Below, one piece after another: positions 23,375 through 39,475 of a DNA stretch of 64,000 nucleotides. Position 1 is the first letter of the stretch. Every line of letters begins with the position of its first letter. The stretch spans positions 989-64,988 of the forward strand of contig CAZRXY010000014.1 in NCBI GenBank assembly GCA_964604155.1. The letters run 5' to 3'. The DNA is from an uncultured Candidatus Cloacimonadota bacterium. GTDB lineage: Bacteria > Cloacimonadota > Cloacimonadia > Cloacimonadales > TCS61. A program made the translations under genes and the position numbers. The notes beneath the pieces were generated by a model. That model searched no databases. It was given only the letters and a program-made list of their open reading frames with translations, and was not told the DNA's origin.

Positions 23375-23419
23375 AGCCGCAGATTACCGGCAGAAATCCT
23401 GGTAATCTGCGGCTTTTTT
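23375..23419 (+). terminator. Rho-independent terminator
   Basis: AGCCGCAGATTACC...GGTAATCTGCGGCT followed by a T tract. Confidence 0.85.
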
Positions 23420-23887: not shown

Positions 23888-26263
23888 ATGGGAGAAGAAA
23901 AGAAGATAGGGATTTTTCTCTGCCAGTGCGGTGGTAATATTTCCAAGACAATCGATTTAGAGGCAGTTCAGCATCATCTGGAAAACAGGCAAGATGTATC
24001 TGTGGTTCAGATTCACAGTAATATGTGTTCCGGTGCGGGGCAGAAATTGATCATGGAAGAAGTTAAGGAAAAGGGCTTGAATCGCGTAGTGATAGCGTCC
24101 TGTTCGCCTCATTTTCATGAAAAGACCTTTCAAGGCACAATGGAGAAATCTGGGTTAAACCCATTTGTAATGGAGCTGGTTAACCTGCGTGAGCATTGTT
24201 CCTGGCCCTATAAGGACAGGCCTGAAGAAGCTACAAACAAAGCCAAGGATTTGGTAGTGGCGTCTCTTAATAAGGTGCGTGAGGACTACAATTTATCCAA
24301 AAAGAAGATACAGATGGGTAAACGAGTTCTGGTGATAGGTGGAGGAATAGCCGGCATCCAGGCATCACTTGATTTGGCAGCTACCGGGAATCAAGTATAT
24401 CTGGTGGAAAAAGAGCCTACGATTGGTGGCAAGATGGCAATACTCACTAAGACTTTTCCCACGGAAGATTGTTCTGCCTGCATCATATCTCCCAAGATGG
24501 CAGCGGCTCAGGATGATCCAAATATCACATTATTAACAAATACTGAAATAGTGAGCACGGTGGGTCACAGACTGCATTTTGAGATCACAGTAGAAAAGAA
24601 GCCACGTTATATAAACCCGGAGATAGATATGGATCAATGCCTGATCTGCGAAAAATGCGTGCAGGAATGCCCGGTGAGTGCACCTAATAAATGGGAGCAA
24701 GGAATAATGGACCGCAAAGCTATCTATATTCCTGCGGCTCTGGCAATTCCTTTCAGATATTTGATAGATGAATCAGTTTGCCTGCATTTTGTGGACGGCT
24801 CTTGTAACATATGCGAAACGGTATGCCCGCAACAGGTAATAGATTTTTCGCAGAAGCCGGAAAAAATCCAATTCACAGTCGATAATATCATTGTAGCTAC
24901 AGGATATGACACGATCGAGCCTTCAGAGAAGCCCATGTTCGGCTATGACAAGCTGAAAAACGTGGTGACAGGGCTGGAAATGGAAAGAATAGTTGACCAC
25001 ATTACAGAGACCCCGCCACCGCGGGAAGTGGGCAATAGAGTAGCATTTATCCAGTGCGTGGGTTCGCGTGATGAGCAAACCGGCAGAGAATACTGCTCCA
25101 GAGTTTGCTGTATGTATGCTGTAAAGCTGGCATCACTTTTGAAGCAGGCAAAGCCTGAGAAGGATATCTATATTTTCTACACCGATATCAGAGCCTATGG
25201 CAAGGGATTTGAGGAGTACTATAAACGGGCTCAGCAATTAGGTATAAAATTTATTCGTGGTAAAGTAGCAGAATTGCGAGGCGTGGCAGAAAGTGATAAG
25301 GTGCTATTGAAAGCAGAAGACACATTGTCACGTCAATTAATAGAAAGTGAATTTGATTTAGTAGTTCTTTCCACAGGGCTAAAACCCAATGATTCTACGG
25401 AAAAAATTGTGAATTTCCTAAAATTAACAAAAAGCTCGGACGGATTTTTACAGGAAGCACATCCCAAGTTCAAGCCGGTAGACACCAATATAGAAGGTGT
25501 GTTTATCTGTGGTGTAGCACAAGGACCAAAGGATATACCGGATACAGTAGCCCAGGCAAGTGCGGCGGCAGCAAGAGTGATGGTTACATTGGCACAGAAA
25601 GAATTTGATGTAGACCCGCAGCTTGCCTTTGTGAAGGCAGCGTTATGTGATGGATGTGGAAAGTGCATTTCAGCCTGCCCCAAGGATGCGCTGGTAATGA
25701 AAAGCAATAAAGCAGAAGTAGTGGAAGCCCTCTGCGTGGGCTGTGGTGCCTGTTTACCCGTGTGCCCCATGGAAGCCATAGATTTTCATAACAGCTCGAA
25801 CCTGCAGATGTATGCCACCATAGACGGGATACTGGAAGGCAAGCAGGAAGGTGAAACACGGATATTGATATTTGCGGATAATACCTGTACATACAGACTG
25901 GCAGATGCTTTGGGCATTAGAAAAATGAAATATGATATTGATACCAGGATAATCAGAGTGCCCAGTGCGGCGAGGATTTCTTCCAGACTGCTCACCTATT
26001 CCTTCAAAAAAGGGGCAGATCTGGTGATTTTGGGTGATTGTCCTGAAGCCAGTTCACTCTATCCCTGGAGCAAACGTGTTACCGAAAATACGATAAAAGA
26101 AGCAAGTGAGAAATTGCAAAATGCTGGCATCGCCGATGAGCGGATATATTTTTCTGAATTTACAGCCGGAGACTTGCAGAAATTTATGGGATTGGTTAAT
26201 GATTTGGCGGCAAAAGTGAAATCTACCGAGGCAATTAGCCAGGAACAGCGCAGCAGATTATAG
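23888..26263 (+). CDS. hdrA: Heterodisulfide reductase subunit A-like flavoprotein fused to a C-terminal MvhD-like domain
   Basis: CQCGGNI, CSP, REHCSW, GGGIAG, TFPTEDCSAC, CVGSRD...YCSRVCC, HPKFKPVDT, ferredoxin motifs, MvhD-like tail. Confidence 0.92.
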   Translation: MGEEKKIGIFLCQCGGNISKTIDLEAVQHHLENRQDVSVVQIHSNMCSGAGQKLIMEEVKEKGLNRVVIASCSPHFHEKTFQGTMEKSGLNPFVMELVNLREHCSWPYKDRPEEATNKAKDLVVASLNKVREDYNLSKKKIQMGKRVLVIGGGIAGIQASLDLAATGNQVYLVEKEPTIGGKMAILTKTFPTEDCSACIISPKMAAAQDDPNITLLTNTEIVSTVGHRLHFEITVEKKPRYINPEIDMDQCLICEKCVQECPVSAPNKWEQGIMDRKAIYIPAALAIPFRYLIDESVCLHFVDGSCNICETVCPQQVIDFSQKPEKIQFTVDNIIVATGYDTIEPSEKPMFGYDKLKNVVTGLEMERIVDHITETPPPREVGNRVAFIQCVGSRDEQTGREYCSRVCCMYAVKLASLLKQAKPEKDIYIFYTDIRAYGKGFEEYYKRAQQLGIKFIRGKVAELRGVAESDKVLLKAEDTLSRQLIESEFDLVVLSTGLKPNDSTEKIVNFLKLTKSSDGFLQEAHPKFKPVDTNIEGVFICGVAQGPKDIPDTVAQASAAAARVMVTLAQKEFDVDPQLAFVKAALCDGCGKCISACPKDALVMKSNKAEVVEALCVGCGACLPVCPMEAIDFHNSSNLQMYATIDGILEGKQEGETRILIFADNTCTYRLADALGIRKMKYDIDTRIIRVPSAARISSRLLTYSFKKGADLVILGDCPEASSLYPWSKRVTENTIKEASEKLQNAGIADERIYFSEFTAGDLQKFMGLVNDLAAKVKSTEAISQEQRSRL

Positions 26264-26276
26264 TGAGGATAAAAAT

Positions 26277-26681
26277 ATGGCAAAGAAGATAGTTTTTGAT
26301 GAAAAGACCCTGGCATTTCAACGCAGGATTGAGGACCTAAGTGGTCAGAATACTGCCTTATGCGATCAATGTGGCACCTGTACAGGCGGCTGTCCCTTTA
26401 TTGAAGAAATGGATATCACACCATCACAATTAATGCGCCAGGTGATGATGGGGCAGGAAGATGTTCTCCAGTGCGATACGCTTTGGATTTGTGCCACCTG
26501 TAATACCTGCACAGTCCGCTGTCCGCGCAAACTTGATGTTTCTAAAATAGCAGAAGCGTTGCGACAGGTGAAATTGCGAGACGAGATAAATAATCTTGAT
26601 TTAAATAATCTTTCTAAAGAAGAATTACGGGAGCTTCCGCAGATTGCTCTGATAGCGGCAATAAGAAAATTGAGTTCATAG
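26277..26681 (+). CDS. hdrC: Heterodisulfide reductase subunit C-like
   Basis: CDQCGTCTGGCP and WICATCNTCTVRCP. Confidence 0.9.
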   Translation: MAKKIVFDEKTLAFQRRIEDLSGQNTALCDQCGTCTGGCPFIEEMDITPSQLMRQVMMGQEDVLQCDTLWICATCNTCTVRCPRKLDVSKIAEALRQVKLRDEINNLDLNNLSKEELRELPQIALIAAIRKLSS

Positions 26682-26738
26682 CGGTTTGATAAAACCTGTT
26701 TTTTTATGAAAGTTAATAATATATAAGGAGAGATAAAA

Positions 26739-27638
26739 GTGAAAATACCATATTTTCCTGGTTGTTCATTAAAAACCTATGGTAGCGGATTTGAAAAATC
26801 AGCCATTGTTTCAGGTAAATTTCTCGATATAGAATTTGTGGAGCTTACCCGCTGGAACTGCTGCGGAGTGGTATCCTCTCTCACCAGCGATGATCTGATG
26901 CATCATCTGGCACCGGTGCGGAATATGATCCGCGCTCTGGAGATGCAGGACGAAGGGCTGGTGGATACCGGCAAAAAGCTGCTGACGCTATGCTCTATGT
27001 GCCTGAATACCCTAAAGCGATCAAACCTGAAAGTGCAGCAGAATCCTGAAGACCTTGGCACTATAAATGATTTTATGTATAAAGAAGATAAGAAATATGA
27101 TGGCAGTGTGGACATAGTACATTTTCTGGAAGTTTTAAAGGAATACGGTTTTGAAAATATTACGGAAAAAGTGAAATTGCCCCTGGAAGGATTGCGTGTA
27201 GCACCGTATTATGGCTGTATGCTGATCCGCCCGAAGGAAGTGGGAATAGATGATGCAGAAGAACCGGTAATCATGGAAGATTTTATAAAATCATTATCGG
27301 CAGAACCCATCAACTGGCATTCTCGCAAAACCTGCTGTGGCAGCTATCTTACTGTGAGTAAGAAAGATCTGGTAATGAAACTAAATCGGCGGATACTGGA
27401 AGATGCCTCCGCACATGGAGCCGATGTGATTATAACAAGCTGCCCCCTGTGTGCTCATAACCTTGACAGTTTCCAAGAAGAAATAATCACACTTGACCCC
27501 GGATTCAAGGCTGTGCCTGTTTTGTACTTTACTCAATTATTAGAAATAGCTCTCTCAGGCGAAGCAACTAATCTCGATTTTAAGAATCATAAAGTAGACC
27601 CACTTGGTGTTATTAATGAAAAAATATTTAAAAAATAA
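26739..27638 (+). CDS. hdrB: Heterodisulfide reductase subunit B-like
   Basis: Two CCG domains: YFPGC/WNCCG/CSMC and YYGC/TCCG/CPLC. Confidence 0.92.
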   Translation: MKIPYFPGCSLKTYGSGFEKSAIVSGKFLDIEFVELTRWNCCGVVSSLTSDDLMHHLAPVRNMIRALEMQDEGLVDTGKKLLTLCSMCLNTLKRSNLKVQQNPEDLGTINDFMYKEDKKYDGSVDIVHFLEVLKEYGFENITEKVKLPLEGLRVAPYYGCMLIRPKEVGIDDAEEPVIMEDFIKSLSAEPINWHSRKTCCGSYLTVSKKDLVMKLNRRILEDASAHGADVIITSCPLCAHNLDSFQEEIITLDPGFKAVPVLYFTQLLEIALSGEATNLDFKNHKVDPLGVINEKIFKK

Positions 27639-27676
27639 AAAACTATTACTTATTTAGTGTAAGGAGGTTATCTACA

Positions 27677-28363
27677 ATGGCAGTGGAGCAAAAGATGGTT
27701 ACCGTTTACATAATGGGAGAATCCTACCAGGTGCCGGAAGGATCAACGATTATCATGGCATGGGAATATGCCGGATTTCAATTAAAAAAGGGACTTGGTT
27801 GCCGGGAAGGATTTTGCGGAGCCTGTGCCACGGTCTATCGTGAAAAAGGCGATTACAAATTGCGCGGTGGACTTGCCTGTCAGACTGTGGTTACAGAAGG
27901 AATGTCACTTGTGCAGGTGCCATTTGTACCCGCTGAGAGACCTAAATATGACCTGGCAGAGCTGGAACCGGGGATAGACACTTTTAAAGAACTTTTCCCC
28001 ACCATATTCCGTTGCGTTGCCTGCAATACCTGTTCCAAAGCCTGTCCTCAGGATATTAAGGTGATGGATTACATTCAAGAACTCAAGCGTGGCGATATTG
28101 CTGCGGCAGCTTCCACCTCATTTGACTGTATCCGCTGTGGGCTATGTGCCCTGAGATGTCCGGCAGATATTGTGCAATTTAATGCAGCGACCCTGGCACA
28201 GAGGCTATATGGCAAGTACCTGGCAAAGCCGAGTCCCGAGCTTGCTCAGCGATTAAAGGAAATAGCCGAAGGCAGGTTTGATGAAGAAATAGAAGAATTG
28301 AATAATATGGGTCATGATGATCTAGTGAAAAGGTATTATTCAAGAGAAATAAAGATAAAATAA
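27677..28363 (+). CDS. Fe-S subunit of a fumarate reductase/succinate dehydrogenase (2Fe-2S plus two 4Fe-4S motifs)
   Basis: GCREGFCGAC...LAC; CVACNTCSKACP; CIRCGLCALRCP. Confidence 0.85.
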   Translation: MAVEQKMVTVYIMGESYQVPEGSTIIMAWEYAGFQLKKGLGCREGFCGACATVYREKGDYKLRGGLACQTVVTEGMSLVQVPFVPAERPKYDLAELEPGIDTFKELFPTIFRCVACNTCSKACPQDIKVMDYIQELKRGDIAAAASTSFDCIRCGLCALRCPADIVQFNAATLAQRLYGKYLAKPSPELAQRLKEIAEGRFDEEIEELNNMGHDDLVKRYYSREIKIK

Positions 28364-28377
28364 GCGGGAGGCAATAG

Positions 28378-30048
28378 ATGTATCCAGAATATATGATGGA
28401 ATCGATACATAAGGTGGAGGCAACTCGTGCCAAAAGACTTGCAATTGCCAAAAAACAAGGCAAGCAGGTGTTTCCAGCGATGACAGAACAGGAACGCGAA
28501 AAGGTGCTGAACACTTATCACCCGGATTACAAAACTGATGCCTTGAAAGAATTGCGGTTAGGACCAAATAAAGGCGAAAAGATCACCAATGAAGTTGTAG
28601 ATATAATGGAATCTTATCCTCGCAACAGAACATCAGATTTTGATCTATCCAAAATAGATTATGAAACTGATGTACTCGTGATAGGCGCTGGTTCTGCCGG
28701 AATGTCTGCTGCCATAGAAGCAGATAAACTGGGCGTAAATACATTACTGGTAACCAAACTAAGACTGGGTGATTCCAATTCCATGATGGCACAGGGTGGT
28801 ATTCAAGCCGCAGACCAATCCGATGACAGCCCCACTCACCACTACCTCGATGTTATTGGCGGGGGTCACTTTGATAATAAGCGAGACTTAGTGGAAGCAT
28901 TAGTAATGGATGGACCAAAATCAATCAAGTGGCTGGAAGAACTGGGAGTAATGTTTGATAAGAATCCTGATGGCTCTATGATGGTGAAACCCGGTGGTGG
29001 CACTTCTCGTAACAGAATGCACTCCACGCGGGACTATACTGGTGCCGGAATTTGCCGCGTACTGAGAGACGAGATATACAGCAATTCCAAAAACCTCCGA
29101 TATCTGGAATACACCTCAGCTACGGAATTGCTCAAGGATGATAAAGGACAGGTGGCAGGCGCCGTTTTATATCATATAGAGCTCAAGGAATATTTTATTG
29201 TTAAAGCCAAGACTGTGATAATCGCTACGGGTGGCTTTGGCAGACTTCACATACGCGGTTTTGAGACTACCAATCATTACGGAGCTACGGGTGACGGATT
29301 AGTTTTGGGTTACCGGGCCGGCGCTAATCTACTATTTATGGATTCTGTACAATATCATCCTACAGGAGCCGTATTCCCTGAACAGATCGTGGGCTTTTTA
29401 TGCACCGAAAAGATCAGGTCTATAGGGGCACAGCCGGTAAATAAGGATGGAGAACTTTTTGTCTATCCCTTAGAACCCCGCGATGTGGAGGCTTCTGCCT
29501 TTATTAAGGAGTGTGAAGAAGGTAGAGGCGTAACCACACCCTCTGGCTTGAAAGGTATCTGGCTCGATAGCCCCTTGATTGACCAGATTTCCGGTGAAGG
29601 TACTATTGAAAAAACCTTGCCGGCTATGCTGAGGCAATATCAAAGATTCGATATCGATATTCGCAAATATCCCATGCTGGTGTATCCCACTTTGCATTAT
29701 CAAAATGGCGGACTGGAAATAAATGCTAATGCTGAGACAAGTGTGCCCGGGTTATACGTCGTAGGCGAAGCATCAGGCGGCATTCACGGTAGAAACCGGT
29801 TGATGGGAAATTCGCAGCTCGATATAATAGTCTTTGGCAGAAGAGCAGGAATTCATGCCGCAGAAAAAGTGAAAAATGGCTTAGAACTGGGAAAACTTAC
29901 CCTGCAGCACGTAGATGAATATGCTAAAGAAGTAGAAAAACTGGGAATCGATAAAAAAAGAGTATCACCCATGATCTTACCAGATTACATCCCAGACCAT
30001 GTGAAAGCTAAGCAGATGACCTCGGAATATCTGGGGACTATATATTGA
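28378..30048 (+). CDS. Fumarate reductase/succinate dehydrogenase flavoprotein, soluble type
   Basis: GAGSAG, AQGGI, ATGG, TGDG, QYHPTG, PRD, HYQNGG, HGRNRLMGNS. Confidence 0.88.
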   Translation: MYPEYMMESIHKVEATRAKRLAIAKKQGKQVFPAMTEQEREKVLNTYHPDYKTDALKELRLGPNKGEKITNEVVDIMESYPRNRTSDFDLSKIDYETDVLVIGAGSAGMSAAIEADKLGVNTLLVTKLRLGDSNSMMAQGGIQAADQSDDSPTHHYLDVIGGGHFDNKRDLVEALVMDGPKSIKWLEELGVMFDKNPDGSMMVKPGGGTSRNRMHSTRDYTGAGICRVLRDEIYSNSKNLRYLEYTSATELLKDDKGQVAGAVLYHIELKEYFIVKAKTVIIATGGFGRLHIRGFETTNHYGATGDGLVLGYRAGANLLFMDSVQYHPTGAVFPEQIVGFLCTEKIRSIGAQPVNKDGELFVYPLEPRDVEASAFIKECEEGRGVTTPSGLKGIWLDSPLIDQISGEGTIEKTLPAMLRQYQRFDIDIRKYPMLVYPTLHYQNGGLEINANAETSVPGLYVVGEASGGIHGRNRLMGNSQLDIIVFGRRAGIHAAEKVKNGLELGKLTLQHVDEYAKEVEKLGIDKKRVSPMILPDYIPDHVKAKQMTSEYLGTIY

Positions 30049-30058
30049 TTGATTAAAC

Positions 30059-30090
30059 AAAAAAGCGACCGCATGCGGTCGCTTTTTTTT
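30059..30090. terminator. Bidirectional terminator between the convergent operons
   Basis: A tract, GCGACCGC-AT-GCGGTCGC palindrome, T tract. Confidence 0.88.
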
Positions 30091-30095
30091 GCATA

Positions 30096-30923
30096 TTATT
30101 CCTTCTTATCCTTCTCCACAGCAAGGCTTTTCAGATACTTAAAGGTCTTATCAATCATGTTAAAGCCCTTATATGCCTCTCCGATATGAAAATTGATATT
30201 CAGCTCCCTGGAATTGGATATATCTTTGGGCGCTGCAATACCATAAGAATAGAGCATCTCCTGATCATTAAAAATATCATCAAGTTTCTTCTGTGCCGCT
30301 TTATGCTTGTGATCAAGCTCGACAACCTGCTTCAGATGCTTTATTGCCTCAGACAAATTAAGGCTGTCCAGATAAGTGAGGGCAAGCTGGAAATGCACCG
30401 AGACTATGGAATCATCTTCCTCTAATATTAGCTTAAACTTTGTAATAGCTTTCTCGTAATCCCCAATAGTTTTATAGGCAATTGCCAAATCGTAGCAGCC
30501 CACCGTGTTATGAGGCATCTTATGACGTAACATTTCAAACATCTCTATACTCTTTGGTATCCTGCCGGTGTGAAAATATGCCAGTCCTATCCAGTAATAT
30601 GCCATATCAAGCTGGCAACCGTCTTCTACCAGACCTTTTAGTATCTTGATACATTGAGAAAATTTGGTGGCACGGAAATATGCTATGCCCAGGCGATAAC
30701 TATCTAATTTGTTATCAGGATTTTTTTTTAATTGCAATTCAAAGTGCTTTATAGATTCTCCCACATCGCCCTTGATGTAGTAAACCTCACCAAGAATTGA
30801 ATACACATCCTTATAATCAGCGTCAATCGTCAGGATTTTCTTGTATAATGCTATAGCATCATCAAGCAGTCCCCTTCTTTTAAGCTCCTCGGCTTTATGA
30901 AAAAGTTCTTTGCAATCATTCAT
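30096..30923 (-). CDS. Tetratricopeptide repeat protein
   Basis: About six 34-aa LGxxY...A/S...F repeats. Confidence 0.85.
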   Translation of the reverse strand: MNDCKELFHKAEELKRRGLLDDAIALYKKILTIDADYKDVYSILGEVYYIKGDVGESIKHFELQLKKNPDNKLDSYRLGIAYFRATKFSQCIKILKGLVEDGCQLDMAYYWIGLAYFHTGRIPKSIEMFEMLRHKMPHNTVGCYDLAIAYKTIGDYEKAITKFKLILEEDDSIVSVHFQLALTYLDSLNLSEAIKHLKQVVELDHKHKAAQKKLDDIFNDQEMLYSYGIAAPKDISNSRELNINFHIGEAYKGFNMIDKTFKYLKSLAVEKDKKE

Positions 30924-30926
30924 CAA

Positions 30927-32387
30927 TTATTTACCCCCTCGTATTTCATTGACAGCCCAATCTCTGGCTTCCTGCAAAAATTCTTCAGGAATATCGCCAA
31001 TAAAGCCATTCTCGACCATTGAATCCGTGAGCTTACGGGCATAATCAATTTCTGCTTTTGCTAAATTGAAAACCTCATCCCAACTGAGGGTATTACGGGC
31101 AACACCATCTTTGATCGCCTGCATAGCTACGTCTGCAGCTTCATGGGCAAAAATATCCGGCTCATCCATCTTTGGAATAATGTCATCAGGACTGATACCA
31201 CGCTTTTCGGCATACGAAGCCAGCGAATAGGAGGCGGCAATTGCCATATTATCCGTGATCTTGGCTGCTCTCACCAACAATGCACCCTTGAGTATACCCG
31301 GAAAACCGATTGAATTATTCACCTGATTAGGAAAATCTCCTCTGCCGGTAGCGACAATAAAAGCTCCAGCTTCCCTGGCGGCGTAAGGATATATTTCCGG
31401 CACCGGATTAGCACATACAAATACTATAGCCTTGTCTGCCATGCTTTTTATCCAAGATTGCTTCACGGTATCCGGTCCCGGCTTAGATAAAGCTATCAAT
31501 ACATCTGCTCCTCTCATGGCTTCTTCTATGGTGGCAATTCTATGAGGATTAGTTTGTTTACAAAGGTCCCATTTGCGGTAAAATTCGGGCTTGGATTCCA
31601 CATCCTGCCTGCCGCTATGCAAAGAACCCCTGGAATCAAACATGATCAGATTATGCGGGTCTGCCCCAGCTTTTATTATTATACGGGCTATAGTGGTATT
31701 AGAAGCCCCCGCCCCTATCATCACTATTTTGGCATCTTCCATCTTCTTCTCTGCCAGCTTGAGAGCATTGATCAAGCCTGCCAGGGTTACCGAAGCTGTA
31801 CCCTGAGCATCATCATGCCAAACCGGGATTATGCACTCTTCTCGAAGTGTATCCAGCACCTTATAGCAATTAGGCTGAGAAATATCCTCCAGATTGACTG
31901 CACCAAAACTTGGTGCTGCCATTTTGACGAATTCGATGATATTATCAGGATCTTTTTCGCCGGCAGCATTCGTGCTGTCCACGCAAAGCGCCACTGCGTC
32001 CACTCCACCCAGATACTTCATTAAATACGCCTTTCCTTCCATCACACCCAAACCACCCGGAGGTGTGCAGTCTCCATCTCCCAAAACCCTCGTGGAATCA
32101 CTCACCACAGCCACAAGATTGCTGCGGTTTGATAATTCGTATGATGCCAGATTATCATCACGTATGGTAGTGGAAACCAGAGAGACTCCCGGCGTGTACC
32201 ACACATTGAACCAGTTAAAGCCGGGTACAGGTACTTTGGGAACTGTTTGAATCTTTCCCCTGTAATACTTGTGCGAAAGAAGTGCCGTTTTTTTCAGGAA
32301 CAACGTCTTTGCCCGAGCTAATTCCTCCTGAGTAAATTCTTCCGGAAATATGTCGTTTATATTCGACAAATCGAGCTTCACCTTCAT
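30927..32387 (-). CDS. NAD(P)-dependent malic enzyme
   Basis: YTPGV, VMEGKA, NLEDI, HDDAQGTA, GAGAS, ANPVPEI, TGRGDFPNQVNN; start moved to ATG 32387. Confidence 0.93.
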   Translation of the reverse strand: MKVKLDLSNINDIFPEEFTQEELARAKTLFLKKTALLSHKYYRGKIQTVPKVPVPGFNWFNVWYTPGVSLVSTTIRDDNLASYELSNRSNLVAVVSDSTRVLGDGDCTPPGGLGVMEGKAYLMKYLGGVDAVALCVDSTNAAGEKDPDNIIEFVKMAAPSFGAVNLEDISQPNCYKVLDTLREECIIPVWHDDAQGTASVTLAGLINALKLAEKKMEDAKIVMIGAGASNTTIARIIIKAGADPHNLIMFDSRGSLHSGRQDVESKPEFYRKWDLCKQTNPHRIATIEEAMRGADVLIALSKPGPDTVKQSWIKSMADKAIVFVCANPVPEIYPYAAREAGAFIVATGRGDFPNQVNNSIGFPGILKGALLVRAAKITDNMAIAASYSLASYAEKRGISPDDIIPKMDEPDIFAHEAADVAMQAIKDGVARNTLSWDEVFNLAKAEIDYARKLTDSMVENGFIGDIPEEFLQEARDWAVNEIRGGK

Positions 32388-32422
32388 TATGATCCTCCGT
32401 TTATATTTATCTTTTTTATCTT

Positions 32423-32974
32423 CTATTCTAATATCTGGAATCTTTTTACTCCTTCCAGATAAAGATCTCCGCCATAACAATCATTCACTACGATCAGCGG
32501 CATTTCTCTCACAACAAGTCTGCGGACAGCTTCGGGACCTAATTCGGGAAAGGCGATCACTTCTGCGGAAATTATTGTTTTTGCCAGAAGGGCTGCCGCT
32601 CCGCCGGTAGCTCCAAAATATACTCCGGGATAATCCTGCAAACCCTGAATAACTTCCTGAGAACGATTTCCCTTTCCGATCATTCCTCTCATTCCCACCT
32701 TGAGCAAATCAACTACAAATGGATCCATGCGATAGCTGGTTGTAGGTCCTGCGGCACCTATCACCTGATCCGGTTTTGCCGGAGATGGTCCCACATAAAA
32801 AATCACGCTCCCCTCAGGATCAAAGGGTAGTGGTTCTCCTGCTTTCAAAAGGTCCACAAGTTTTTGATGGGCTGCATCGCGAGCCGTGTATATAACTCCG
32901 CTTAATGATACCTGATCACCAATCTTAAGTTTTTTAACGTCTTCAAGCCTTAAAGGTGAATTTAATTTTATCAT
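32423..32974 (-). CDS. Fe-S fumarate hydratase, beta subunit
   Basis: TARDAAH, GPTTSYRMD, MIGKG, GGAAAL. Confidence 0.93.
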   Translation of the reverse strand: MIKLNSPLRLEDVKKLKIGDQVSLSGVIYTARDAAHQKLVDLLKAGEPLPFDPEGSVIFYVGPSPAKPDQVIGAAGPTTSYRMDPFVVDLLKVGMRGMIGKGNRSQEVIQGLQDYPGVYFGATGGAAALLAKTIISAEVIAFPELGPEAVRRLVVREMPLIVVNDCYGGDLYLEGVKRFQILE

Positions 32975-32985
32975 CTTCCATTACC

Positions 32986-33831
32986 TCACAGTATATAAGT
33001 CTTTTCTCTATTGGCATGACACTGAATATTCACAGCTACAGGATAAGTAGCGATATGACGGGGAAATACCTCTATAAACAGATCCAGAGCAGTCATCCTG
33101 CCACCCAGACCGGCAGGTCCTATCCCAAGTTTATTTACATCCTCCAGCCAGTCCATTTCATATTGGGCTATCTGAGGATCAGAATTGCGAACACCAATCC
33201 CTCGCAGCAAAGCTTTTTTTGCCAGATATGCTACATAATCAAAAGTTCCGCCAACTCCCACTCCAATAAATATCGGCGGACAGGGATTCCCACCTGCGAT
33301 CTTTACAGTTTCTATCACAAATTCTCTGATGCCTTTCACTCCATCAGCAGGTTTCATCATCTTTATGCGGCTCATGTTCTCTGAACCTCCCCCTTTTGGC
33401 ATAATAGTGATCTTCACCTTGTCACCACCTGTTATATCTGTGTGTAAAATCGCAGGAGTGTTATCCTGAGTATTTTGTGGATTGGTGATGGGGTCTTTCA
33501 CTATTGATTTTCGCAGATAACCTTCTGTGTATCCCTGCGCCACTCCCCTATCCACTGCTTCCTTGAGTAAGCCTCCCGTGAATGCCACTTCCTGACCTAT
33601 CTCCATAAATACTACAGTGAAACCGGTATCCTGGCAAATCGGTGTCATCTCTGCTTGCGCAATTCTTATGTTTTCAAGAAGCTGGTCAAATACTGCCTTG
33701 CCTACCTCAGATTCCTCTTTTTCGCGGGACTTTAAAAAGCACTCTACCAAAGATTCATTGGCTACCGTACTTGCTTCAATACATAGCGATCTGATGATCT
33801 TTGTGATCTCGCCTACATCAATTATCCTCAT
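32986..33831 (-). CDS. Fe-S fumarate hydratase, alpha subunit
   Basis: PICQDTG, KGGGSEN, GNPCPP, GPAGLGG, CHANR. Confidence 0.93.
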   Translation of the reverse strand: MRIIDVGEITKIIRSLCIEASTVANESLVECFLKSREKEESEVGKAVFDQLLENIRIAQAEMTPICQDTGFTVVFMEIGQEVAFTGGLLKEAVDRGVAQGYTEGYLRKSIVKDPITNPQNTQDNTPAILHTDITGGDKVKITIMPKGGGSENMSRIKMMKPADGVKGIREFVIETVKIAGGNPCPPIFIGVGVGGTFDYVAYLAKKALLRGIGVRNSDPQIAQYEMDWLEDVNKLGIGPAGLGGRMTALDLFIEVFPRHIATYPVAVNIQCHANREKTYIL

Positions 33832-33848
33832 AACAAAATCTCCTTATC

Positions 33849-34733
33849 CTATAAAATATTGATTTTTTTTAGCACTTCCGCCAAGGTTTCTCCTATCTTT
33901 GCCGGAGATAGAGCTACTGTAACATTGGCATCCCGCAAACACTGAATCTTTTCCTGAGCCGTTCCCCTGCTGCCGGCTATAATCGCACCGGCATGACCCA
34001 TCCGCTTGCCTTTGGGCGCAGTTCTTCCTGCTATGAAGGCTACTACAGGTTTGGTGATATTCTCTTTTATGTATCCCGCAGCCTGAATCTCCAAATCTCC
34101 TCCTATCTCACCTATCATCACTATTGCCTCGGTCTCCGAATCCTGCTCAAATAAATGCAGGATGTCTCTGAAATCTGTGCCAATTAGCGGGTCACCACCT
34201 ATCCCCACGGCAGTGGATATCCCAAAACCAGATTTAACAATCTGGTTGGCAGCTTCATAAGTGAGAGTGCCCGATTTTGAGATCAGTCCCACTTTACCCT
34301 TTTTAAAAATATTACCCGGCATAATTCCCATTTTGCATTCATCTGCCGTAATGATGCCCGGGCAATTAGGACCTATCAATACGCTGCCATTTGCCTTAGC
34401 ATATTTCTTGGCATAAATGATCTCTTTTACCGGAATCCCTTCAGTGATACAGACGATAATGGCTATGCCCGCATCGACCGCTTCCATTATGGCATCTGCC
34501 GCAAATCCAGGTGGCACAAATATCAATGAAGCCTCTGCCGCTGTGGCTCTCACCGCTTCCTGAACAGTATCAAAAACCGGCTTGCCCAAATGAGAGGTTC
34601 CACCTTTACCCGGGGTGACACCAGCTACTATTTTTGTGCCATACTCAAGACAGTTTGCTGAATGGAAAGTGCCTTCCTTGCCTGTGATGCCCTGTACTAT
34701 TACCCGCGTATCTTTATTTACCAGAATGCTCAT
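33849..34733 (-). CDS. sucD: Succinyl-CoA synthetase alpha subunit
   Basis: [33 protein letters not shown]. Confidence 0.97.
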
Positions 34734-35906
34734 CTAAATTTCTCCTTTGGCTGCCATAACTGCCTTTCTTGCCCCAGACTGCAAATCTTCAGCAATGATT
34801 ATGGTTTTGATTTTTGCCTTCTGTAATAATTGGGCAGCTTCTTCTGCATTAGTGCCATCCAGCCTCACAACCACCGGCTGCTCGATACCGATCTTCTGAG
34901 TGGCTTCCAGTATCCCCCCGGCTATACGATCACATCGCACAATCCCTCCAAAGATATTTACAAGTATGGCTTTCACATTCTTATCCCGCAAAATGATCTC
35001 AAATCCCCTTGCCACCGTCTCTGCACTGGCATTGCCACCTACATCCAGAAAATTTGCCGGCTCCCCACCCTCAAGCTTGATGATATCCATGGTGGACATT
35101 GCCAGTCCCGCTCCATTTACTATGCAGCCCACATTGCCCTCCAGCTTGATATAGCTTAAGCCATATCTTGATGCCTCCAGCTCTGCAGCCTCTTCTTCTT
35201 CTTCATCTCGCAACTCGCCAATCTCCGGATGTCTGAATAGCGCATTATCATCAAAATTCAGCTTGGCGTCCAAGGCAATAAAATCGTCATCTGCCATAAG
35301 TACCAGAGGATTGATCTCAATCAAGCTGGCATCCGTCTGCTGATAAACATTAAATAGAGCAGATATAAATCTACTGAAATTTTTCATTTGAACCGGGGTG
35401 AGCCGAAGCCCGAATCCCAGTTTTCTCAAATGGAAATTCCGTAACCCCGTAATAGGATCTATGGAAACTTTAATGATTTTTTCCGGTGAATTTTCCGCAA
35501 CTTCCTCAATATCTATTCCTCCCTCAGTGGATGCCATTATCACCGGCATCTCCAGCCGCCTGTCCAAAGCTATACCCAGATAGTATTCCTTGACGATGTC
35601 CACAGGCACCTGGATATAAAGCTTATTAACTCTTTTACCCGCTGACCCGGTTTGATTGGTCACCAGTACTTTCCCCAGCATTTCAGATGCAATTTTCGCC
35701 ACCTCGTCCAGCGAAGAAGCAAATTTTACACCACCGGCTTTTCCCCTGCCTCCCGCATGAATTTGCGCCTTCACTACCCAATTCTCGCCACCCAATTCCT
35801 TCGCCTTCTGAACAGCTTCAGATGACGAATCTGCCATGTGACCCCGTGTAACATTTACACTATAAGTCTGTAATAATTTCTTCGCTTGATATTCATGAAT
35901 ATTCAT
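34734..35906 (-). CDS. sucC: Succinyl-CoA synthetase beta subunit
   Basis: [41 protein letters not shown]. Confidence 0.97.
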
Positions 35907-35995: not shown

Positions 35996-37093
35996 TTATA
36001 CTGTTATGTCTCTCACATATTCACCAATTGCCAGGCTGCACGTTAAACCCGGTGATTCTATGCCGCTAAGATTGATGAATCCGGGCAAACCCAGATCAAA
36101 CTCCTGCTTTATATGAAAATCTCTGAATTTTTCACCCTCGCCCTGCAGCTTTGCCCTTATTCCAGTGTCGTCAGCATGAAGAATTTCCACCTCTATCTTC
36201 AGATATTTTGATATGGCATCTATGAATTCCTTTCTGTGATCATCGGTCATACTGTAATCCAGCTTGTCTGTATAATAGGCATTAGGACCAAATCTAATTT
36301 CACCAGCCAGATTGAGAGTTAAATGTATTCCCAGATAACTGCCCGATGGATCAGGCAAAGGATATATCAGCCTGTCTATCTCAAATTTTTGAGTGGTTTT
36401 ATAATATTCCCCTTTGCACCAATGCAATTTAAGTCCCGCCGCCTCGGTATCTACACCCAATAGATTCAGCAATTGCTCGCTGTGCAAACCAGAACAATTT
36501 ATCAACCTCTCCACTAATAGCTCTTCTCCATCATCTAGCTGCACCAAATATCCTTCTTCAGTAAATTTTATATCTATCACCTCACGACTGAACATAATAA
36601 AGCCACCTCTGTTTTCAAATTCCTGCTTTAGTGACTTCATATAGGCGTGGGTATCCATGATCCCGGTTCCGGGTACATTCAAAGCCATAACCGCCTTCAC
36701 CTCAGGGATAATTCTCCGGCATTCTTCCGCCCCAATAATGCTAAGGTCCTCTACCCCACTTGCCAAGCCATTTTTATAAAGCTGATAAAGTGCCGGCAGC
36801 TCTTCTTTACTAGTAGCCACCACAAGCTTGCCACATCTTCTGTGAGATATTTTATGATCCGATAAATAATTATATAATAATTTCCTGCCCTTTGTACACA
36901 ATCTTGCTTTTAAACTACCAGGAGTATAATATATACCAGAATGGATCACTTCGCTATTTCTGCTGCTCGTGTGCCTGCCAAAACTATCTTCCTTTTCTAT
37001 TATCACTATATCATCAGCTATATCCAGTAATTTGCAGCCAACTGACAGCCCAATCACTCCGGCACCTATTACAAGGATTCTCACTCTCTCCAT
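35996..37093 (-). CDS. FAD-dependent oxidoreductase, L-2-hydroxyglutarate oxidase-like
   Basis: GAGVIG, TSSRNSEVIHSGIYY, KGEYY, LGIHLT, IESPGLT. Confidence 0.85.
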   Translation of the reverse strand: MERVRILVIGAGVIGLSVGCKLLDIADDIVIIEKEDSFGRHTSSRNSEVIHSGIYYTPGSLKARLCTKGRKLLYNYLSDHKISHRRCGKLVVATSKEELPALYQLYKNGLASGVEDLSIIGAEECRRIIPEVKAVMALNVPGTGIMDTHAYMKSLKQEFENRGGFIMFSREVIDIKFTEEGYLVQLDDGEELLVERLINCSGLHSEQLLNLLGVDTEAAGLKLHWCKGEYYKTTQKFEIDRLIYPLPDPSGSYLGIHLTLNLAGEIRFGPNAYYTDKLDYSMTDDHRKEFIDAISKYLKIEVEILHADDTGIRAKLQGEGEKFRDFHIKQEFDLGLPGFINLSGIESPGLTCSLAIGEYVRDITV

Positions 37094-37094
37094 C

Positions 37095-38087
37095 TCAATT
37101 CTCAGATAATACCTCAGGGTTTACCAGAACCGGCGGCATCTGCCCATCCAGGCAAGCTCGGGCACACTCCATCACCAGCTCTGCCATGCGAATACGGGTT
37201 TCCAGCGTGCCACTGCCCACATGAGGCAGAATAACTGCATTATCTAAAACCCTTAATTCCATTGGTACTTGTGGCTCGTTGTAATACACATCCAGCCCGG
37301 CAGCCGCAATCTGATTTTGCTGCAATGCCTTTATTAGTGCCATTTCATTGATTACCTTGCCTCGTGAAGTATTTATCAGAATTGCATTTTTCTTCATTTG
37401 TGCCAACTGGGGATCATCGATAAGATGATGCGTATCTTCATTATAGGGCACATGGAGCGATATAAAATCGCTGTCTTTGAGTAAGTCCGCCAGAGTACAA
37501 AATTCGGCAGATAGTTTCTGTTCCATATATTCGTCTTTACTTCTATTATAGTACTTTAGTCTCATGCCAAAACCCAGGGCTCTTCTTGCTACCGCTTTGC
37601 CAATCCTGCCGGCGCCCACGATTCCAAGAGTCTTGCCATAGATATCGTGCCCCAGCATCAGACAAGGTGCCCAACCCGTAAATTTTCCTGATCTGGTATA
37701 GCGATCTGCTTCCACGATTCGCCTCGCTACACAAAATATCAGTGCCCAGGCCAGGTCTGCTGTAGTCTCAGTTAATACGTCTGGTGTATTGCATACCGGT
37801 ATTCTTGCTCTGGTGGCTGCCTCTATATCTATATTATTATAGCCCACTGCATAATTACATATCCCCTTCAGGTTCGGGTTCAAGTTAATCAGTTCTCTAT
37901 CTATAGTATCTGCCAGCATTGTGATTATCAGATCGCAATGCTTTATTCCTTCCCTGATCTCGTCCGGATATAGATTCCTCGGCAAATCATTGCAGTGTAT
38001 CTCGTAAATCTCTTCCAATTTATTCATCACAGCTTCAGGTAACCGCCGTGTTATAAAAACTTTTGATTTCATCTTTCTTATCCTCAT
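37095..38087 (-). CDS. D-2-hydroxyacid dehydrogenase (glyoxylate reductase/D-glycerate dehydrogenase type)
   Basis: VGYNNID, NTPDVLTETTAD, GAGRIG, NTSRG, PHVGSGT. Confidence 0.9.
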   Translation of the reverse strand: MRIRKMKSKVFITRRLPEAVMNKLEEIYEIHCNDLPRNLYPDEIREGIKHCDLIITMLADTIDRELINLNPNLKGICNYAVGYNNIDIEAATRARIPVCNTPDVLTETTADLAWALIFCVARRIVEADRYTRSGKFTGWAPCLMLGHDIYGKTLGIVGAGRIGKAVARRALGFGMRLKYYNRSKDEYMEQKLSAEFCTLADLLKDSDFISLHVPYNEDTHHLIDDPQLAQMKKNAILINTSRGKVINEMALIKALQQNQIAAAGLDVYYNEPQVPMELRVLDNAVILPHVGSGTLETRIRMAELVMECARACLDGQMPPVLVNPEVLSEN

Positions 38088-39475
38088 CTTAAATTCTTTA
38101 TAAATTCATCTTTACCCATTATCATCATTCCTGCGCAAGGCAAACTTTTTCTCACTAATTTATCTATCCTCTCGGAAACCTCCCTGATCTCCCACTGGGC
38201 ATGGCTATCAGACCGTAATCTGGAAAAGTGATAAAGTTCTCGTAAATTTGATTGGAACAGCACCGGCATCCGATGCGAATTTGTCAAAATATAGCTGCCC
38301 AATCCCTGTTTCTTTTCCTCCATCTGATAAAAGAGCTTTTCCACTCTTCGCATCAATGGCTCTATGATCTCTCTGCCACCGATTTTCTCCAGTAAGGGAG
38401 GTATCACATAGCCATATCCTGGATGATAGCCAGTCCTTAATATGGTTGACATCCTGTGCCTTTTTAATTGGCCAAAACAGGATGAAGAAACTAATAAAGA
38501 AAAGGTGAAAGCTACCAGCTCAAATGACCGAGGCACTCTGTGCCAAGGTTGCATGTGCTCAAATATTGAACGAAATATTTTGTGTTTTTCAGATTCAGAA
38601 AGCTTTTTCACTTCCTCAAAAATTGTACCCACATCCCCCCCGCTACACTCAAACATCAGACCGGCAAGTATCCAGTTATCTGCTTCAGGTGTTATTTGCA
38701 GTAATCGCGTTTCAGTATTAAATTTATGGTCTGTCCTCTCGGGCAAAGCATATTTTATGCCCCGCTCAAATTCCTCACACTCTGTATAGCGAACCAGCGA
38801 AGGCGCAATTTTTACAGCTTCATAACGCAACCCGGTCTTTAGTTCCTGAGCCTCCTGCAAAGGGCTTCTATCTAAACGCTGCAAAAGTCTTTCCAGTGAT
38901 CTGGCATTGATCGTCATGCCAAACTGCGTCTCAGTAGCTAAAGAAAGCACATATCTGGCATCTTCTTTTGCCTTGCCACGTAATTCCCGCATTCCTCCCA
39001 CAAAGCCCTCACGTTTAAGATGATCTCTGCCCCGCTCATAAAGCATTCTATAGACCCTGTTCTGATCAGCTATTAGATCGCAAAATCCCTGCTCCAGATC
39101 ACTGCCGCATAGCTCCCCGGGTAACACAAAATCCCCATCCAGCGTAACATAACGCTGCGATTTCTCCGTAAATGATGCCAGCCGCGAACGCTGCACTTCC
39201 TCTACAAGTAAACGCGATATTCCCGTGATATCAAAATTGAATACTGCATGCTCAGCCACTGAGGCGTGACCCATTTCAAATATTATATTTTCATTGGAAG
39301 ACCGCGATCGTGCCACATCTTCCAACGCCTCCATTCGTAATTCACCCACACTTTTACTGCTGCGTGATATCCGGGCATAAGCTGCTGAAATCGTTTCCGG
39401 CGTAGCTCTTTTCTGATCCGGTAATTTTTGTATCTCTGTATAATCCAGATTGTATCCAGCTATCTCTATCTTCAT
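38084..39475 (-). CDS. thyX: FAD-dependent thymidylate synthase, long two-domain form
   Basis: GHASVAEH, RSRLASFTEKSQRY, second domain RHR, HAQWEIR. Confidence 0.85.
   Translation of the reverse strand: MKIEIAGYNLDYTEIQKLPDQKRATPETISAAYARISRSSKSVGELRMEALEDVARSRSSNENIIFEMGHASVAEHAVFNFDITGISRLLVEEVQRSRLASFTEKSQRYVTLDGDFVLPGELCGSDLEQGFCDLIADQNRVYRMLYERGRDHLKREGFVGGMRELRGKAKEDARYVLSLATETQFGMTINARSLERLLQRLDRSPLQEAQELKTGLRYEAVKIAPSLVRYTECEEFERGIKYALPERTDHKFNTETRLLQITPEADNWILAGLMFECSGGDVGTIFEEVKKLSESEKHKIFRSIFEHMQPWHRVPRSFELVAFTFSLLVSSSCFGQLKRHRMSTILRTGYHPGYGYVIPPLLEKIGGREIIEPLMRRVEKLFYQMEEKKQGLGSYILTNSHRMPVLFQSNLRELYHFSRLRSDSHAQWEIREVSERIDKLVRKSLPCAGMMIMGKDEFIKNLR

Follow-up and report, generated by a model that had tools for sequence, protein, structure and literature searches.

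The stretch of DNA considered here (the window, 64,000 nucleotides long, from an uncultured Candidatus Cloacimonadota bacterium) carries on its + strand a tight run of five genes, hdrA-hdrC-hdrB followed by genes for an iron-sulfur (FeS) subunit and a flavoprotein. Our favored reading, which we hold tentatively, is that this unit encodes a soluble fumarate reductase that would be fed from reduced ferredoxin, without electron bifurcation, by an Hdr module whose MvhD domain is "cluster-less", that is, devoid of the usual ligand set for a [2Fe-2S] cluster. The five-gene run, and its convergence on the sucCD, fumarase, malic enzyme, and tetratricopeptide repeat (TPR) protein genes, had been noticed in an earlier interpretation made without database searches (the sequence-only reading), and coordinates and profile matches confirm it. 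Genes, motifs, residue states, gene order, and co-occurrence are observed directly; from them we infer the direction of catalysis, the electron donor, a physical complex, and the pathway served. Positions are window coordinates, and the labels G, C, and L stand for genomes, contigs, and loci, with G000 being the source genome. The latter comprises 2.94 Mb in 153 contigs and is 90.6% complete, a figure that applies to all genome-wide negatives given below.

The feature that sets the unit apart is its HdrA (23888..26263, + strand; 791 aa), an HdrA::MvhD fusion according to profiles, a PDB search, and a structure model. HdrA2 is its best NCBIfam match (849.7 bits against a cut-off of 1100), HdrA in the PDB is matched with E 3e-188, and the model (pLDDT 83) has 5odc_A as its best Foldseek match. 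The FAD domain, the ferredoxin domains, and the cluster cysteines are kept; K413, E366, and the cluster cysteines are invariant in 25 aligned rows, and the spacing suggests that K413/E366 correspond to the bifurcation pair K409/E356. The FlpD/MvhD domain (PF02662 at residues 659-778, E 5.5e-24) occupies residues 652-791 (25841..26260, + strand) and is predicted to fold well (pLDDT 84-96). A cysteine survey and the alignment to 5odc_D place D664, C667, S693, C718, and S723 at the five MvhD cysteine positions, meaning that two of the five cysteines are present and three are lost. In solved methanogen complexes, the [2Fe-2S] cluster of MvhD or ElpC is described as immediately preceding the bifurcating FAD (PMC12350162, PMC6019823). 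Because the cluster cysteines are lost and the cluster precedes the bifurcating FAD in those complexes, the route by which electrons from H2 or NADH usually enter HdrA is likely closed. The ordinary HdrA bifurcation assumed in the sequence-only reading has therefore become doubtful, as the fused MvhD domain lacks the [2Fe-2S] ligands and the operon has no donor module. That reading had also reported an absence of Flx genes, overlooking both HdrA's C-terminal FlpD/MvhD domain and a separate flx-hdr cluster on contig C34.

The cluster-less state recurs in other genomes. All 15 fused MvhD copies in the examined loci have at most two of the five cysteines, and three of them have none, compared with five in a typical free MvhD. 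Among 93 database matches to a profile of the domain, which were chosen by likeness to the variant, 89 likewise have two or fewer; the named matches belong to Cloacimonadota, Marinimicrobia, WOR-3, KSB1, Deltaproteobacteria, Caldisericia, Coprothermobacterota, Eisenbacteria, and Thermoplasmata. Within the genus, a dN of 0.20-0.22 against a dS of 1.3-2.6 indicates purifying selection on the domain, approximately threefold weaker than on the HdrA core, and the invariant positions are Y, D, G, K, Y, R, P, S, and D. In a quick HdrB tree of 56 rows, the HdrB partners of the variant (15 labelled rows plus two with HdrA off the contig) fall on one branch with an SH-aLRT value of 96. The cluster-less HdrA marks one lineage, in which it often stands in place of the Mvh-hydrogenase version. 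The cluster-less domain is covered by NCBIfam models named ferredoxin:CoB-CoM heterodisulfide reductase HdrA, whereas HdrA1 is described in PMC6019823 without an MvhD extension. No named methanogen HdrA1 could be tied to the domain, as the search gave two unnamed proteins.

The other four genes lie on the same strand. HdrC (26277..26681; 134 aa; TIGR03290, E 2e-20) has two [4Fe-4S] motifs, and its eight cysteines are invariant in 45 rows. HdrB (26739..27638; 299 aa), an HdrB-like CCG protein by NCBIfam profiles and cysteine alignment, has ten cysteines that form two five-Cys CCG motifs and are also invariant in 45 rows; the His that follows the YYGC motif of methanogen HdrB is a Met here. It scores 146.2 bits with the HdrB model and 140.7 bits with the SdhE model (cut-off 500), both under cut-off, and is the sole CCG-family (PF02754) match in the genome. 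The FrdB/TfrB-like FeS subunit (27677..28363; 228 aa; Pfam Fer2 and Fer4) carries one [2Fe-2S] and two full [4Fe-4S] motifs with 12 cysteines and no CCG domain, and its C-terminal part resembles HdrC (hhalign 95.6%). None of the five proteins exceeds 1.64 in 19-residue hydropathy mean or shows an RRxF motif within its first 45 residues, and the genome has no Sdh_cyt (PF01127) match, other anchor families not having been searched; to this extent the absence of a membrane anchor noted in the sequence-only reading holds. The absence of a hydrogenase from the operon, noted there too, extends to NiFe hydrogenases in the whole genome, in which none was matched.

The FrdA/TfrA-like flavoprotein (frdA'; 28378..30048; 556 aa) bears on the direction of catalysis. 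Its best NCBIfam match is methanogen TfrA, at 330.6 bits and thus far under the cut-off of 718; it has an N-terminal extension of ~95 residues and no match to the C-terminal helical domain. Alignment to E. coli SdhA and FrdA puts N134 in place of the flavinylation His, while the dicarboxylate-site residues H327, T343, E344, R368, H440, and R474 are kept. In 90 homologues from the fetched loci, a few near-duplicates included, the flavinylation position is Asn without exception and all six dicarboxylate-site residues are invariant. Wolinella methylmenaquinol:fumarate reductase (MFR), which has non-covalent FAD, and His mutants of the E. coli and yeast enzymes are described as having no detectable succinate oxidation, and putting the flavinylation His back did not bring this activity back (PMC2680327). 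Given the Asn in 90/90, the kept catalytic residues, and this behavior of enzymes with non-covalent FAD, the flavoprotein is likely a fumarate reductase rather than a succinate oxidiser. SdhA/FrdA and NadB models also match it below their cut-offs (NadB at 266 against 452.75 bits). The NadB match and the non-covalent FAD would both fit an L-aspartate oxidase, a function that we rejected and find hardly credible, in agreement with the sequence-only reading: apart from the sub-cut-off score, the position of the NadB specificity Glu, which we take to be E121 of the E. coli enzyme, is G206 here and is Gly in 89 and Ala in one of the 90 homologues. The genome, moreover, has its own NadB on C99, which scores above the NadB cut-off and has the specificity Glu.

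Linkage between Hdr and the flavoprotein goes beyond chance. Across 80 loci of the flavoprotein family, drawn from many phyla, the FeS gene is present in 76 and an hdr gene in 62, with hdrA, hdrB, and hdrC together in 34; flx occurs in 22 of these loci, mvhA/G in 14, and kor in 23. Many of the 18/80 loci that show no hdr in the fetched DNA are short contigs, and approximately 5-7 have long flanks. Among 61 related genomes, which are kin and not independent, HdrA, HdrB, and SucC mark the same 26, and the other 35 have none of them; the flavoprotein is found in 23, every one of which has HdrA, HdrB, and SucC. The co-conservation supports the claim in the sequence-only reading of a cytoplasmic, anchor-less unit linking fumarate/succinate to an Hdr module, and the hdr-frd synteny on which it drew is borne out. 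The variant domain occurs in 14 of the 61 genomes, 12 of them also with the flavoprotein and nine with both on the same contig. MvhA is unmatched in seven of the nine genomes that have the variant on the frdA' contig, and a close MvhA is present in 10 of the 11 frdA' genomes without the variant. Gene order in 31 variant loci (the window and some near-duplicates included) is directly hdrA-C-B-fes-frdA' in 19; two have a canonical Mvh-Hdr set in between, two adjoin such a set but show no frd, four are without frd, and four are too short. The link between the variant Hdr and frd is strong, albeit not obligatory.

Two further observations concern neighbors of these genes. A DsrE-family gene with a conserved Cys lies directly upstream of the cluster-less hdrA in L012 (4618-4980), L009 (4823-5182), and L130 (8929-9285); a role of the DsrE-like protein as thiol carrier was considered and set aside, three loci being too few to adopt it. 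In the Mvh-type loci L026, L027, L028, L119-L122, and L126, the gene after frdA' encodes a GlcD-like FAD oxidoreductase that has a divergent MvhD of its own.

In the ferredoxin-fed mechanism that we favor, electrons would pass from ferredoxin to the ferredoxin domains of HdrA, the HdrA FAD, the HA4 cluster, HdrC, and HdrB, then to the FeS subunit by direct contact or via a thiol/disulfide carrier, and finally to the non-covalent FAD of the flavoprotein, where fumarate would be reduced to succinate. The cluster-less MvhD domain would act as a structural cap. Together with malic enzyme, fumarase, and SucCD, the reductase would constitute a reductive C4 branch, an electron sink in amino-acid and sugar fermentation, and succinate might proceed via methylmalonyl-CoA mutase, epimerase, and a Na+-pumping decarboxylase to propionate. 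The ferredoxin path is the simplest working path because the MvhD entry appears closed. Independence from MvhD is supported by G007 (96% complete) and G019 (97%), in which the variant is the only HdrA match as well as the only FlpD-family match and no FlxA match was obtained; in G007, korDABC directly precede the variant hdrA. That an Hdr can run on ferredoxin is shown by HdrA2B2C2 of Methanosarcina acetivorans, reported to reduce heterodisulfide with ferredoxin as donor (PMC5296606). Four POR-family enzymes in the source genome are candidate sources of reduced ferredoxin.

Several points weigh against this reading. Transfer of electrons from ferredoxin directly to fumarate would waste ~90-100 kJ/mol by textbook potentials, in a cell equipped with Rnf. 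HdrA has retained every one of its clusters along with the bifurcation residues K413 and E366; D664, C667, S693, and C718 could in principle still bind metal, and no thiol carrier was identified for the step from HdrB to the FeS subunit. Another HdrA was found in 12 of the 14 variant genomes (20 candidates per genome scored), a close FlxA is present in nine of the 14, and the two without a second HdrA, G007 and G019, are incomplete assemblies. Moreover, either half of the unit can stand apart from the other: variant HdrA-C-B occurs without frd in L127, L128, L129, and L146, and fes-frdA' without hdr in L006, L008, L016, and L030. Finally, no enzyme study of an Hdr-linked soluble fumarate reductase was found in the literature searched.

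The wasted free energy, the kept bifurcation residues, and the second HdrA in 12/14 variant genomes are the grounds for the main rival explanation, which we consider possible though doubtful. The cluster-less HdrA would pair in a mixed dimer with a canonical HdrA-MvhD-donor arm, here the one on C34, and NAD(P)H electrons would be split to ferredoxin and, via HdrC/HdrB, to fumarate. Such trans-complementation is the energetically better route and accords with the retention of K413/E366; in dimers of known structure, the [2Fe-2S] cluster passes its electrons to the FAD of the other HdrA protomer (PMC12350162). The C34 cluster has four HdrA-like genes, three MvhD genes with an in-frame UGA, FlxCBA, and HdrC, and it has no HdrB, the window HdrB being the only CCG protein matched in the genome. 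The variant is also found beside a canonical hdrA-mvhD-mvhGA set (L007, L028, L130, and L148) and beside an HdrA-GltD fusion (L146), and a C34-type module abuts fes-frdA' in G014, G015, and G032. However, no second HdrA, intact MvhD, or FlxA was seen in G007 and G019; HdrB-less Flx-HdrA clusters are found as well where the variant is missing, and of 12 Hdr genomes of that kind eight have several HdrA, so the co-occurrence is unspecific. Unlikely in our estimate is a modular version in which the variant HdrA, unable by itself to accept mid-potential electrons, would make up with the thiol-free soluble fumarate reductase an Hdr "acceptor half" that forms mixed dimers with interchangeable donor halves (Mvh hydrogenase, Flx with a selenocysteine MvhD, or HdrA-GltD); with a donor half bound it would bifurcate to fumarate and ferredoxin, and without one it would work as a simple ferredoxin:fumarate oxidoreductase.

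It seems improbable that a direct hydride donor, NAD(P)H or another cofactor, reduces the HdrA FAD, with bifurcation to ferredoxin and fumarate and with the remodelled MvhD domain aiding donor or partner binding. HdrA2 interacts with F420H2 (PMC5296606), and the cluster-less domain is under purifying selection with the invariant positions listed above; on the other hand, NAD is reported to be no substitute for F420 with HdrA2 (PMC5296606), HdrA2 retains its [2Fe-2S] cluster, the window HdrA has no added nucleotide-binding domain, and the domain is less strongly constrained than the core, by the factor given above. Quite improbable, too, is a quinone-free, confurcating oxidation of succinate for syntrophic propionate oxidation, toward which the sequence-only reading leaned and which did not survive the comparison. 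The genome does have the mutase, epimerase, carboxyltransferase, SucCD, fumarase, malic enzyme, PFOR, NADH-dependent FeFe hydrogenase, and formate dehydrogenase; for Cloacimonadota, succinate dehydrogenase has been named as a missing step (PMC8892533), and a 2025 preprint places Hdr behind an mmc-like cluster in marine members (10.1101/2025.11.11.687785). Yet the flavinylation His is absent from all 90 homologues, confurcation requires an exit via the MvhD cluster, which is lost, and the mutase occurs in 50/61 relatives as against 23/61 for the unit, with no mutase match in three unit carriers (G007, G020, and G021). The genome's decarboxylase, in addition, is of the Na+-pumping type, which is typical of propionate formation. 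A membrane-attached quinol:fumarate reductase resembling Type E complex II, composed of flavoprotein, FeS subunit, and CCG protein and either supplied by HdrA-C or acting apart from them, appears very improbable. The CCG protein scores nearly the same with SdhE as with HdrB, two [4Fe-4S] motifs and non-covalent FAD are found in Wolinella MFR as well (PMC2680327), and the genome has an Nqr-like gene set; but there is no MqnA/D match in the genome, its sole UbiA-family protein is a geranylgeranylglyceryl-phosphate-type lipid prenyltransferase beside GGGP synthase and not MenA, and when the unit splits, hdrB goes with hdrA and hdrC, not with frd. Of the two pathways named in the sequence-only reading as relevant, the methylmalonyl-CoA pathway is represented (mutase, epimerase, and carboxyltransferase), while quinone synthesis yielded no MqnA/D or MenA-like match.

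Returning to the ferredoxin-fed unit, its general system is known: both the Hdr-"TfrAB" linkage and the idea of bifurcation are already in print, and the link of Hdr to frd put forward in the sequence-only reading was published before (PMC6315080, PMC11636981, PMC8542988). Rubin-Blum 2019 (PMC6315080) described an interleaving of tfrAB with flx-hdr and kor and put forward direct electron shuttling, and the flxABCD-hdrABC-korABCD-tfrAB cluster of tubeworm symbionts and Chromatiaceae is proposed to bifurcate NADH electrons to fumarate and ferredoxin (PMC6315080, PMC11636981). Co-expression supports this cluster, but tfrAB deviated from its expression pattern (Mitchell 2024, PMC11636981); a 2026 survey repeats the Hdr-TfrAB proposal. 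The window flavoprotein is 58% identical to that of the Escarpia symbiont locus L057, which has the same FeS partner and co-located hdrABC. In contrast, the free five-Cys MvhD/FlxD, the Flx, the Kor, and the nearby ATP citrate lyase of the symbiont cluster are not in the window operon, which has neither a donor module (Flx or MvhAGD) nor korABCD; Flx is on C34 and Kor on C27. In Ca. Celaenobacter (Cloacimonadota), an Mvh-Hdr-TFR-OGOR-fumarase-SCS cluster was read as reductive TCA (Williams et al. 2021, PMC8542988). The window shares with it the phylum, by nearest matches, and the clustering of TFR, Hdr, fumarase, and succinyl-CoA synthetase genes. It differs in that the Celaenobacter cluster includes a group 3c hydrogenase and OGOR, whereas the window genome has no NiFe hydrogenase match and its kor is on another contig; the window also has the cluster-less HdrA fusion, and its TCA genes converge on the operon. 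The NADH-dependent FrdABCDE of Hydrogenobacter is described with C, D, and E subunits (PMC13147460).

The unit also has traits in common with several characterized enzymes. Like methanogen TfrAB, the best NCBIfam match of its flavoprotein, it is soluble by the criteria above, has an FeS partner, and contains a CCG domain within the system. TfrAB, the thiol:fumarate reductase of methanogens with CoM-SH/CoB-SH as donors, is reported (Heim 1998) to be soluble, with an FeS partner. Unlike TfrAB, the unit has a flavoprotein well short of the TfrA cut-off and the additional HdrA and HdrC, and its CCG domain is in the separate HdrB next to an FeS subunit without one, instead of being joined with the FeS part in the single chain of TfrB. 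With HdrA2B2C2 of M. acetivorans it shares the HdrA-MvhD fusion of ~790 aa, in HdrA2 a recipient of ferredoxin electrons; HdrA2, however, is of type Ia, is reported to carry a [2Fe-2S] cluster in the MvhD domain, and works with F420H2 (PMC5296606), while the window domain lost 3/5 Cys and fumarate is the likely end acceptor. Type E SdhABE and Wolinella MFR resemble it in their non-covalent FAD, second [4Fe-4S] cluster, 10-Cys CCG subunit, and restriction to fumarate reduction (PMC2680327), but Wolinella MFR is periplasmic, Tat-exported, quinol-dependent, and without HdrA/HdrC, and no quinone pathway was found in the window genome. Set against complex II of types A-D, the unit has the dicarboxylate site and lacks the flavinylation His and the transmembrane anchor; set against bifurcating MvhD/FlxD-HdrABC, it has the HdrA FAD site with the Lys/Glu pair and the 10-Cys HdrB and lacks the MvhD ligand set. 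The donor-less, cluster-less version is a real, conserved variant of the published gene cluster, and the literature searched, which was thin in subscription journals, yielded no publication about a cluster-less HdrA-MvhD next to a fumarate reductase.

An Hdr-linked soluble fumarate reductase has been proposed to power the reductive TCA cycle in tubeworm symbionts and many uncultured anaerobes. The five-gene version, being the smallest found here, offers a practical construct for asking whether fumarate replaces heterodisulfide as acceptor and whether a thiol carrier is needed. The variant also informs the role of the MvhD cluster, since a whole lineage dropped it, and it argues against taking these genes for the succinate dehydrogenase missing from Cloacimonadota that oxidise propionate.

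As to the layout of the locus, the hdr operon begins behind an intrinsic-terminator-like hairpin that closes the upstream gene (23375..23414, + strand; 16-pair stem and T-run, fold at -29 kcal/mol), and the gaps within the five-gene run are 13, 57, 38, and 14 bp. Facing it on the - strand are, from the far end, SucC (succinate-CoA ligase beta; 34734..35906; NF001913), SucD (succinate-CoA ligase alpha; 33849..34733; NF004230), the alpha (32986..33831; NF004885) and beta (32423..32974; NF005310) subunits of a class I fumarase, all four above cut-off, then malic enzyme (30927..32387; 486 aa from the ATG at 32387; PF00390 and PF03949) and the TPR protein (30096..30926; Pfam TPR). Between the two lies a bidirectional intrinsic-terminator-like hairpin (30059..30090), recognized from the sequence and the folding of both strands, with 13 pairs and A- and T-runs; it is absent from the output of a separate terminator scanner. 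Because it folds alike on the two strands (-18.3 and -18.8 kcal/mol), the hdr-frd operon and the TCA operon are most likely two transcription units here. Of the facing set described in the sequence-only reading, both halves are therefore present, but probably transcribed separately. Of 35 other loci with both gene sets, 30 have the TCA genes running in the direction of the flavoprotein gene and five have them convergent, four of the five being close relatives of the window locus; this distribution points to an inversion in the window lineage. The closest loci are from Cloacimonadota, with up to 88% identity.

A promoter scan gave 46 sites, compared with 37 +/- 6 in shuffled sequence. In one metatranscriptome, 6% of the sequence words were present, but the library may contain DNA, so this is no sign of transcription or co-transcription; the same DNA origin is possible for its matching contigs, seven short ones (97-100% alike, depth 2-4) inside the gene runs and another upstream. 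The TPR gene is a recurrent member of the cluster, with homologues beside it in many loci; it accompanies the cluster in Cloacimonadota and Marinimicrobia at 37-69% identity, and its product is possibly an assembly or regulatory factor.

Elsewhere in the source genome, methylmalonyl-CoA mutase occurs with MeaB, and on C27 korDABC is followed by the epimerase, carboxyltransferase, biotin carrier, and the beta subunit of the Na+-pumping decarboxylase. Besides the POR-family enzymes and Rnf, the energy metabolism includes the FeFe hydrogenase and formate dehydrogenase named above. AclA/AclB queries for ATP citrate lyase matched just SucD and SucC in the genome. An ATP-independent citrate lyase (citF and a fused citD-citE) is encoded in L110 (G000:C22, 1052-9218), in a cluster that also holds two aconitase/homoaconitase-family genes and an isocitrate-dehydrogenase-family gene; CitF is found in 31/61 relatives, and this cluster may be the one given as ATP citrate lyase for these bacteria in a publication. 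Short motifs of menB, menD, citrate synthase, ackA, pta, and other genes had almost no matches among the open reading frames, and are too crude to establish absence. Nqr-like genes (B/C/D/E/F-like) lie in L114 (G000:C45, 1160-5050), in a genome without a menaquinone pathway match. In L113 (G000:C121, 692-2277), GGGP synthase adjoins the DGGGP-synthase-like prenyltransferase, an archaeal-type ether lipid pair in a bacterium.

The C34 cluster has features of its own. In L107 (G000:C34), three mvhD/flxD genes (6831, 12591, and 16130) have an in-frame UGA at the Cys of the GGCHPGDCHY motif; UGA-containing mvhD/flxD also occur in G021, G041, and G020, the source genome has tRNA-Sec, and the C34 MvhD is probably a selenocysteine protein. 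Upstream of the hdr cluster (L107, 921-6753) are a DsrE-like gene, a YedE/TsuA-like transporter, three rhodaneses, and TusA, which point to a sulfur relay; a similar arrangement of sulfur genes upstream of hdr is described for Ca. Stygibacter (Williams 2021, PMC8542988). Back in the window, an L-2-hydroxyglutarate-oxidase-like flavoprotein and a glyoxylate-reductase-like dehydrogenase (35996-38087) stand before sucC on the same strand; the former is kept at that place in G002 and G003, and the latter in G003. At 38084-39475 lies a gene for a 463-aa ThyX-family protein with two Thy1 stretches.

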